From Escherichia coli (lineage in GTDB: Bacteria; Pseudomonadota; Gammaproteobacteria; Enterobacterales; Enterobacteriaceae), in the NCBI RefSeq assembly GCF_001677475.2, contig NZ_CP015229.1: DNA of 64,000 nucleotides. One strand, given 5' to 3'. The position numbers were made by a program, and so were the translations under genes. This document shows, one piece after another, positions 41,948 through 45,346 of the stretch; the first letter of the stretch is position 1; every line of letters starts with the position of its first letter. Below the pieces are notes generated by a model. The model saw only the letters and a program-made list of their open reading frames with translations. It did not search any database and was not told where the DNA came from.

Positions 41948-42808
41948 ATGAGCAGCAATACATTTACTCTCGGTACTAAATCCGTTAACCGTCTTGGTTA
42001 TGGCGCGATGCAACTGGCAGGTCCTGGGGTTTTTGGCCCCCCAAGAGATCGCCACGTCGCTATAACCGTGCTGCGTGAGGCGCTGGCATTGGGCGTCAAT
42101 CACATTGATACCAGCGACTTTTATGGTCCGCACGTCACCAATCAGATTATCCGCGAAGCGCTTTATCCTTACTCTGACGACCTGACAATTGTCACTAAAA
42201 TTGGTGCGCGGCGTGGAGAGGACGCTTCCTGGTTGCCCGCCTTTTCTCCGTCAGAGCTGCAAAAAGCGGTGCACGATAATCTACGTAATCTCGGGCTGGA
42301 CGTACTGGATGTGGTTAACTTGCGCATTATGATGGGGGATGGTCATGGCCCAGCGGAAGGCTCGATTGAGGCCAGCCTGACCGTGCTGGCAGAGATGCAA
42401 CAACAAGGCCTGGTAAAACATATTGGCCTGAGCAACGTCACACCGACGCAGGTTGCAGAGGCGCGCAAGATTGCCGAAATTGTCTGTGTGCAAAACGAAT
42501 ACAACATCGCGCACCGTGCTGATGATGCAATGATTGATGCTTTGGCCCACGATGGCATTGCCTACGTGCCGTTCTTCCCGCTCGGGGGCTTTACACCGCT
42601 GCAATCCTCTACGCTGTCGGATGTTGCTGCGAGCCTGGGTGCAACACCCATGCAGGTGGCGCTGGCGTGGCTGTTACAACGTTCACCGAATATTTTGCTG
42701 ATCCCAGGGACGTCTTCTGTTGCTCATTTACGGGAGAATATGGCTGCTGAAAAATTGCATCTTTCTGAGGAAGTGTTGTCTACGTTGGATGGTATTTCGC
42801 GAGAATAA
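41948..42808 (+). CDS. ydbC: Aldo/keto reductase family oxidoreductase
   Basis: 286 aa; K-12 synteny. Confidence 0.85.
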   Translation: MSSNTFTLGTKSVNRLGYGAMQLAGPGVFGPPRDRHVAITVLREALALGVNHIDTSDFYGPHVTNQIIREALYPYSDDLTIVTKIGARRGEDASWLPAFSPSELQKAVHDNLRNLGLDVLDVVNLRIMMGDGHGPAEGSIEASLTVLAEMQQQGLVKHIGLSNVTPTQVAEARKIAEIVCVQNEYNIAHRADDAMIDALAHDGIAYVPFFPLGGFTPLQSSTLSDVAASLGATPMQVALAWLLQRSPNILLIPGTSSVAHLRENMAAEKLHLSEEVLSTLDGISRE

Positions 42809-42820
42809 CGAATATACAAA

Positions 42821-42846
42821 AGGGAAAGATGCATTTCCCTTTTTTT
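42821..42846 (+). terminator. Rho-independent terminator after ydbC
   Basis: Stem AGGGAAA/TTTCCCT followed by TTTTTT. Confidence 0.65.
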
Positions 42847-42870
42847 CTTTTTTAATGGCATGGAGTGCAT

Positions 42871-45177
42871 ATGTTTAAGGCCAGGAATTGCAGCTGGATA
42901 GGTTTACTTCCCCTGTTTATGCTGAGTCTTCCAGTACAGGCGGAACTTCGATGTGTTGCAAATGCAGTTGATATTGAACCATTTTTTTCTGCGGCTACCG
43001 CTGAAGATAAACAACAAGTTGAACAAGCTATCAACAGTAGCGTGAATCTTGTCCCCGTCGGTTTATCTGCACCGGACTGGAAAGTGCATCGTGGCAATTT
43101 AGTGGTGGAAGGTAATATAGAGAGTAATGAAAAATTGATTGTTCTTGGCAATTTGACAGTCAAAGGAAATATTTCCACTTTCTCTCTTTCTAATCCATGG
43201 GTTATTCTCGGTGATGTGACGGCAACGAATATATTTACGGATTCACCACTGTTAATTACCGGTTCGATAGATGCAAGTGGACTGGTATTTATCGACTCAT
43301 ATTACGATAATCCGTCTACGATTAAGGGAAGTATTAATGCGCGCGGGATATTTATCAATGACATAATTGCACCTGTTGTTGTGTCTTCGATAAATAGCGA
43401 ATTCATGGTCCGTGCGGGAGACAAAAATGACACTGAAAATGTCAAAAAAGCACTGACGATAATAAATCCTGATGCATATTATTGGGGCCTAATAAATGAT
43501 GAAGATGCTCTGAAAGAAATTTTTAAGCGAAGCAATATTCGCATGGCAGGGAATGTCTGTAATCAGATGAAAAAAGAAGCGCTGTTTCGCCCTAAGCCTT
43601 CTCCTGAGTTAGTGCAGGAATTGCAAATGCTGGATGAAGGCAAAGTTGCTGCATTTGAAGGACGAGACATTGCGACATTTGATCTTGCCGTAATGCGAAC
43701 TCTCCCAAGGCTTAAAGGAATTTCAGCTAACCTACGCAAACAACTTATTAATAGCAATGATGAACAAACGATTGAAAGTATGGCGAGATATATGCCCGAC
43801 AATGAGATTCTGGAGTTGACCGATCAGCAATTGGGTTACCAGCCTGTGGTTCTGGGGTTGCTCAACCGTGAACCGCTCTCTGTCGAAATAATGACGCGAA
43901 TGAGTCGTCTACCTAATGGTGTCGGTCCGTTGAATCTTGCGCTACGTGAAGATCTCCCTCTGGATATCGTCATGACTCTGGCGAAAAGAGATTGGGATAT
44001 GATCATTCAGGAGCTTTATAAAGATGCGTGGTTATTGCCCGAATCCATTATTGATGGCTATATCCGCAGTGATGATTCCTCTATTCGTCAGGTCGGTGCT
44101 GGAGGACAACTCACCTACAATCAGGCAATGCAGTTGGCGAACGATTCATCAAACAATGTTGTCACAAGCTTAGCGTTCAAGCTGGCAGAGATGAAGCACC
44201 ATGGTCAATTGTTGCGGATGACGCCACAAGAGAGTGACAAAGTTGCAGGCTATTTATACCAAAAATTCGAGAATGACGATGATCTAATACGTGTGTTATT
44301 TTTAGCATTGCCAGATAACTTACAGTTTAATTTTGTTAAAAGGATGGAGAAAAAATCCCCGGCCTACTTTTGCTGTCGGGATATGCAGGTAATTCACTCT
44401 GACGCTGCTTTACAACGGTTATTGACACGTTTCAACGATCCTGAGGGGTGGAGTAATCTGGCGAAAAATCAGTATCTGAGTACGGCGAAGAAACAAAAAA
44501 TTTGGCATCGCGCTTTATCGCATCGAAAAAATAATCCGAAAGCAGATTCAGCTGCATATGAAACCAGCGCTGATATGATTTTGTCTGAGCTTATCAGCCA
44601 CGGTGAAGTTGATGACCAGATGCTATTAAATGCCACCGCCCTGATACGTTTGGAAGACTGGGACTTTTTAGAGAGTGCATTAGTTAGTTGGGATAATTTA
44701 CCCGCTGTTGTCCTCAAGGAATTACAGCAAAATACGCCACGCAATGATATTTGGGCGAAGTTTTTTCTGAGGCAGGAAAACAGCTCCCGTGCGCAGGTTG
44801 ATGAAGCATTACGCGTCTATTATGCACTCGACCCCGGTGCGTTAGCACAACTGGATGTACTGGCAAAACAACCGGATCGTATATGGTGGAGTACACTGGC
44901 GAAAAGCAATCTCACATTTTTCAAGTTCGGCGCACTTAACAACCGCCACACACCGCCTGCAGTACTGGCGGCAGAAATTGATCCCGAGTGGTGGATTGTG
45001 GCGATGAATAATCCCCGTTTTCCAGTTGATGTATTAAAGGCGAGGCTGAAACGTGATCCTTTGCTGGCGTTAGAGCTTGTTAACCCTGAACTGGATTTAG
45101 TCCGCCAGCTGGCGCTTAACGGTAAGACGCGCGCAATACGGGAACAAGCGATGAAAAAACTTGATGAGTTGTATTGA
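42871..45177 (+). CDS. ydbD: Large uncharacterised protein YdbD with N-terminal signal peptide
   Basis: 768 aa from ATG 42871 (the ORF track begins at GTG 42865). Confidence 0.8.
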   Translation: MFKARNCSWIGLLPLFMLSLPVQAELRCVANAVDIEPFFSAATAEDKQQVEQAINSSVNLVPVGLSAPDWKVHRGNLVVEGNIESNEKLIVLGNLTVKGNISTFSLSNPWVILGDVTATNIFTDSPLLITGSIDASGLVFIDSYYDNPSTIKGSINARGIFINDIIAPVVVSSINSEFMVRAGDKNDTENVKKALTIINPDAYYWGLINDEDALKEIFKRSNIRMAGNVCNQMKKEALFRPKPSPELVQELQMLDEGKVAAFEGRDIATFDLAVMRTLPRLKGISANLRKQLINSNDEQTIESMARYMPDNEILELTDQQLGYQPVVLGLLNREPLSVEIMTRMSRLPNGVGPLNLALREDLPLDIVMTLAKRDWDMIIQELYKDAWLLPESIIDGYIRSDDSSIRQVGAGGQLTYNQAMQLANDSSNNVVTSLAFKLAEMKHHGQLLRMTPQESDKVAGYLYQKFENDDDLIRVLFLALPDNLQFNFVKRMEKKSPAYFCCRDMQVIHSDAALQRLLTRFNDPEGWSNLAKNQYLSTAKKQKIWHRALSHRKNNPKADSAAYETSADMILSELISHGEVDDQMLLNATALIRLEDWDFLESALVSWDNLPAVVLKELQQNTPRNDIWAKFFLRQENSSRAQVDEALRVYYALDPGALAQLDVLAKQPDRIWWSTLAKSNLTFFKFGALNNRHTPPAVLAAEIDPEWWIVAMNNPRFPVDVLKARLKRDPLLALELVNPELDLVRQLALNGKTRAIREQAMKKLDELY

Positions 45178-45346
45178 TCCACAACGTAATATTTCTTAAC
45201 TATTTGATTAATTGGGATAATCATTCCTGACAGTGAGTCCCCAATACCTTGATATATTCTGAATTTTTAATGAAGCGGCGTGTTGCGATATCTCCGTCAG
45301 GGGAATTGATGCACCATAACGCAAACCGAATTATCAAGGATTGATA

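Follow-up and report, generated by a model that had tools for sequence, protein, structure and literature searches.

The open reading frame running from 42871 (ATG) to 45177 (TGA) on the + strand of the analysed 64,000-nt stretch of Escherichia coli DNA (hereafter the window) is ydbD (b1407), an already known and uncharacterised Escherichia gene, for whose 768-aa product we lean, with moderate confidence, towards the role of a non-enzymatic, Sec-exported binding or scaffold protein of the cell envelope (a beta-helix head, a hinge and an LRV/HEAT solenoid arm) that is dispensable and expressed at very low levels. As the protein combines an export signal, a short beta-helix and a long helical arm with the absence of any enzyme domain, it most likely binds something in the envelope. 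The gene name and the position downstream of ydbC (pdxI; stop at 42808), as given by the first-pass annotation, agree with the RefSeq orthologues, which carry the label 'DUF2773 domain-containing bactofilin'. The K-12 copy (b1407) occupies the same site after pdxI and shares 97.3% DNA and 96.1% protein identity with the window allele. Compared with the complete RefSeq E. coli genomes, the window allele differs by 2% or more in each case (best 97.9%). The features of the locus are the following:

42818-42853, + strand: intrinsic terminator of pdxI/ydbC (terminator scan; RNA fold -13.9 kcal/mol)
42862-42865, + strand: Shine-Dalgarno GGAG, 5 nt before the ydbD ATG (sequence, fold)
42871-45177, + strand: ydbD coding sequence, 768 codons plus TGA (ORF list, RefSeq annotation of orthologues)
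42871-42942, + strand: predicted signal peptide, aa 1-24, MFKARNCSWIGLLPLFMLSLPVQA (hydropathy, -3/-1 rule)
42943-43077, + strand: N-terminal cap (aa 25-69), formed by a short strand and a helix (44-53) before the first rung (AF2 models)
43078-43425, + strand: right-handed beta-helix (aa 70-185) built of six rungs, each 17-22 residues long and containing three short strands
43171-43335, + strand: codons 101-155, which span about three rungs out of six and are deleted in frame in a natural E. coli allele of 711 aa (global alignment to P0012)
43426-43608, + strand: hinge, aa 186-246, two or three helices and a poorly predicted linker (pLDDT 55-74)
43609-45174, + strand: alpha-solenoid, aa 247-768, about 39 short helices that pair into about 19 LRV/HEAT-class hairpin repeats (AF2)
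44932-45174, + strand: DUF2773 (PF10971), aa 688-768, equivalent to the final solenoid repeats (Pfam)
45178-45346, + strand: ydbD-ynbA spacer, without a terminator-like site (terminator scan, fold z -1.57)

The AF2 model of the whole chain is confident (pLDDT 87.2, pTM 0.76), and a separate domain model reached a pLDDT of 83.8. The N-terminal third had been likened to a beta-helix, and the fold was recovered in the model, while the extent was overstated: the helix (aa 70-185) makes up approximately 15% of the protein. The description of the N-terminal region as low-complexity and repeat-like (the stretch quoted for it, GNIESNEKLIVLGNLTVKGNIS, is found at aa 81-102) holds structurally and fails at the level of sequence, where TRF found no DNA tandem repeat beneath it, self-similarity at lag 18 was weak, and the entropy (3.44-3.48 bits, against a protein mean of 3.73) was only slightly lowered. 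The beta-helix contains the family motif W-x-x-H-x-G-D/N-L, and the hinge a conserved 'L-F-R-x-x-P' motif (with R240 invariant in the family alignment), which marks the end of the stand-alone versions of the module.

Approximately 75% of YdbD, a part that had gone unmentioned in the first-pass annotation, appears to be an LRV/HEAT-type alpha-solenoid (pLDDT mostly above 90; in the AF2 model, which places the beta-helix at 70-181, helices span residues 188-767). Foldseek matched it to PP2A-A, karyopherin-beta2 and CAND1 with probabilities of 0.99-1.0, and it resembles LRV (PF01816/PF25591) and HEAT solenoids (PP2A A-subunit, karyopherin-beta2, DUF2336 proteins) in being a long superhelix of short helical hairpins; a difference in curvature keeps the TM-scores to such scaffolds at about 0.2 only. 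YdbD of E. coli had no match of its own to Pfam LRV, LRV_2 or HEAT at E <= 0.01, and among its homologues P0090 (29.7 bits) and P0171 (33.3 bits) passed the LRV_2 cutoff of 27, while P0140 exceeded those of both HEAT (54.6 bits, cutoff 23.5) and LRV (27.7 bits, cutoff 21.6). DUF2773, whose 81-position profile aligns with YdbD in full (153.7 bits, cutoff 25, E 1.5e-45) and which overlaps an LRV match in the homologue P0063, is really the terminal part of this solenoid and is confined to the final 81 residues. HEAT/LRV proteins that have been characterised are mostly cytoplasmic, whereas YdbD would, judging by its N-terminus, be exported.

This N-terminus (MFKARNCSWIGLLPLFMLSLPVQA followed by E) has the traits of a Sec/SPase I signal peptide under the usual sequence rules (a positive n-region, an h-region of 10-15 residues, and small neutral residues at -3 and -1): a basic n-region (K3, R5) precedes a 14-residue hydrophobic core (W9-V22), and V-Q-A at 22-24 occupies positions -3 to -1 with a P at -4, so that cleavage at VQA|E is predicted. 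In the AF2 model residues 1-27 are disordered, with a pLDDT below 50 for the signal peptide. A twin-arginine motif is absent from the segment, as is a lipobox (the only nearby cysteines, C7 in NCS and C28 in LRC, do not fit one). A strongly hydrophobic N-terminal segment was present in 27 of the 36 full-length homologues and was preceded by K/R in 26 of these 27; about one quarter of the homologues, as called, lack it, and in one seemingly signal-less case the gene call was shortened and an upstream Met restores the signal peptide. The signal peptide proposed earlier is thus upheld as Sec-type and common to most full-length homologues, while the accompanying term 'secreted' survives only as predicted passage across the inner membrane, and not for anything beyond it. 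Export and a periplasmic location are what we infer for the mature protein. Stand-alone beta-helix modules mostly have no hydrophobic N-terminus, and therefore the module is not confined to exported proteins.

The proposal that ydbD forms its own terminator-bounded unit was borne out on the 5' side only, where pdxI/ydbC ends in an A/T-rich hairpin of 10 bp (42818-42843) with a T-run behind it, a terminator also kept in the ydbD-less strain APEC O18; on the 3' side, the scan of 45178-45346 found no terminator and the folding of this spacer is not unusual. The 5' terminator ends ~18 nt from the ydbD ATG, and therefore a promoter cannot fit between the two. No promoter-like site was found near the start, and the 570 nt upstream contain no sigma-E-like promoter (at least 5/7 plus at least 4/5 matches; background rate under the same criterion, 0.48 sites per kb). 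A 4-bp hairpin may in addition partly occlude the Shine-Dalgarno GGAG. Expression of ydbD is reported at below 1 ppm, transposon mutants as having lower fitness (PMC5053530), and overexpression of rpoE as raising ydbD 3.9-fold, the latter in a single study that flagged no prior report (PMC2731931) and an argument for a link to the envelope. Transcription at a very low level would probably stem from RNA polymerase passing the pdxI terminator or starting at a promoter within pdxI.

The YdbD family is rare (151 matches among 1.84 billion representatives), and its range, based on few named clusters and contig contexts, reaches Pseudomonas and Tahibacter; a word-indexed protein search with the family alignment yielded practically the same Escherichia sequences again. 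No neighbouring gene recurs among six homologue loci and, as these neighbourhoods are unrelated, context suggests no partner. A glyoxalase-family gene adjoins the Tahibacter homologue, probably by coincidence. SUKH/SMI1-KNR4 immunity domains, considered for the N-terminal parts of P0167, P0173 and P0181, were dropped since Pfam was empty there at E <= 0.01. The N-terminal module consists of a cap helix, the six-rung beta-helix (signature W-x-x-H-x-G-D-L ... Y-N-D ... D-K), an acidic linker and the L-F-R motif, and its fusion partners outside YdbD-like proteins are exclusively other repeats of the protein-binding kind (LRR, ankyrin, DUF285). It is conceivable, and we advance it tentatively, that these ~200 residues constitute a distinct, uncatalogued domain family other than the bactofilins, occurring on its own or fused to LRV/HEAT, LRR, ankyrin or DUF285, in exported as well as cytoplasmic proteins.

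Public annotation is already bactofilin-like for the N-terminal part, a circumstance missing from the first-pass annotation. Bactofilins are cytoplasmic and carry a short N-terminal membrane-targeting peptide and no secretion signal. On the premise that the RefSeq/PGAP name is literally correct, YdbD would be a polymer-forming cytoskeletal protein with its N-terminus anchored in the inner membrane and its solenoid serving as a cytoplasmic recruitment platform, and the compact right-handed beta-helix of about six windings in the AF2 model, together with the bactofilin 6rib holding the top Foldseek probability (0.47, in a weak list), speaks for such a kinship. Against it, PF04519 stays below its cutoff of 27.9 (the whole protein scores 14.2 bits and the domain on its own 17.9) and appears at E <= 1 in only 4 of 46 family members, which score no better with it than with MinC_C (5/46), FapA (3/46) or pAdhesive_15; the family profile matches BacA (2n3d) at only E 2.7. 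Instead of a short amphipathic targeting peptide, the basic, hydrophobic and VQA|E regions at the N-terminus are typical of a cleaved Sec signal peptide with a full SPase I site. Moreover, unlike in bactofilins (BacA; T. thermophilus 6ria/6rib), the modelled beta-helix is capped at both ends and fused to a 520-aa solenoid; as both ends run into other folded elements, end-to-end polymerisation should be blocked. The bactofilin label is therefore not supported by sequence and holds only as a generic fold resemblance, and we regard a true bactofilin as improbable. The MinC C-terminal domain and FapA fare equally poorly, with matches far under their cutoffs (NCBIfam MinC, E 0.17), and the domain context of YdbD has nothing in common with that of cell-division or flagellar proteins. 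A second alternative is a surface or extracellular adhesin-like protein moved past the periplasm and binding polysaccharide through its beta-helix. Matches to beta-helical adhesins and to the passengers of two-partner-secretion (TPS) systems or autotransporters (tapirin 6n2b, FHA 1rwr, HxuA 4i84, Pet 4om9) are generic (9-15% identity), and compared with such proteins YdbD has only six rungs and no TPS motif, beta-barrel translocator or other outer-membrane translocation domain: its C-terminus is all-helical in the AF2 model and without an autotransporter match in Pfam, and no TpsB, usher or T2SS gene (nor any partner transporter gene) lies consistently adjacent across the loci. We hold this possibility, too, to be unlikely, albeit a little less so than the preceding one.

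As for catalysis, one source names a truncated E. coli YdbD 'protein involved in detoxification of methylglyoxal', and ydbD insertion mutants are reported as methylglyoxal-sensitive in PMC13313352, which credits Kim et al. 2007. That YdbD is itself a methylglyoxal-detoxifying enzyme appears extremely improbable to us: the protein has no similarity to glyoxalase, aldo-keto reductase, DJ-1 or other enzyme families, no catalytic domain of glyoxalase I/II/III or of aldo-keto reductases was matched in Pfam, NCBIfam or PDB sequences, repeat folds account for the whole modelled chain, and the family-invariant residues are mostly glycines (exclusively so in the head module), with near-invariant positions mainly hydrophobic. 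The adjoining pdxI, an aldo-keto reductase, is a separate gene. More broadly, neither the sequence libraries (Pfam, NCBIfam, PADLOC, PDB) nor the PDB folds yielded any homology to a characterised enzyme family, in keeping with the earlier remark that the protein has no recognisable catalytic motif; PADLOC likewise gave no anti-phage defence match. A further alternative would make ydbD a relic in decay that has survived by chance and has largely lost its function, with polar or indirect phenotypes. Of 5426 complete E. coli genomes, 3990 carry the gene and 1436 do not, internal deletion having removed it from some strains (e.g. APEC O18); IS insertions, truncated alleles and the allele cluster with the 55-aa in-frame deletion (711 aa, on 88 contigs) occur as well. 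Its expression is minimal (see above), its GC content (43.7%) is well below that of the window (50.9%), E. coli YdbD has diverged at family-conserved motifs (YND to YYD, DK to ND), and its dN/dS is about five times that of the neighbouring pdxI. Decay is countered by the persistence of a 2.3-kb frame of identical length (768 codons without stops in K-12 and in the two E. albertii alleles, with dS reaching 0.71) and a dN/dS of 0.16-0.26 in every region, by the 3833 genomes with a full-length copy, by the confident AF2 model and by the fitness cost of transposon insertions (PMC5053530). The gene is hence accessory and under purifying selection, its loss from many natural strains fits a weak or conditional function, and we give the relic explanation little credence.

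Returning to an exported binding or scaffold protein as the preferred explanation, YdbD would leave the cytoplasm through Sec and have its signal peptide cut at VQA|E; the mature protein would present a capped six-rung right-handed beta-helix head followed by the conserved hinge and an arm of ~520 residues of LRV/HEAT-type solenoid. Residing in the periplasm or cell envelope, it would use the solenoid and/or a face of the beta-helix to hold a partner, either protein or glycan, and may be helpful in some envelope or electrophile stresses while being dispensable.

ydbD is among the remaining y-genes of E. coli K-12, and its phenotypes are scattered (methylglyoxal sensitivity, sigma-E induction, and a fitness defect despite few copies per cell). 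The domain map of the whole chain favours work on localisation and partners over enzymology, and advises caution with the 'bactofilin' label that is propagated in RefSeq. In other respects YdbD is ordinary, that is, a rare, fast-evolving and dispensable accessory envelope protein built of common repeat folds, and the outcome is a refinement of annotation and no surprise. Should the N-terminal module indeed form a family of its own, it would be a specific head for ligand recognition or self-association, with YdbD as its E. coli representative in the envelope.

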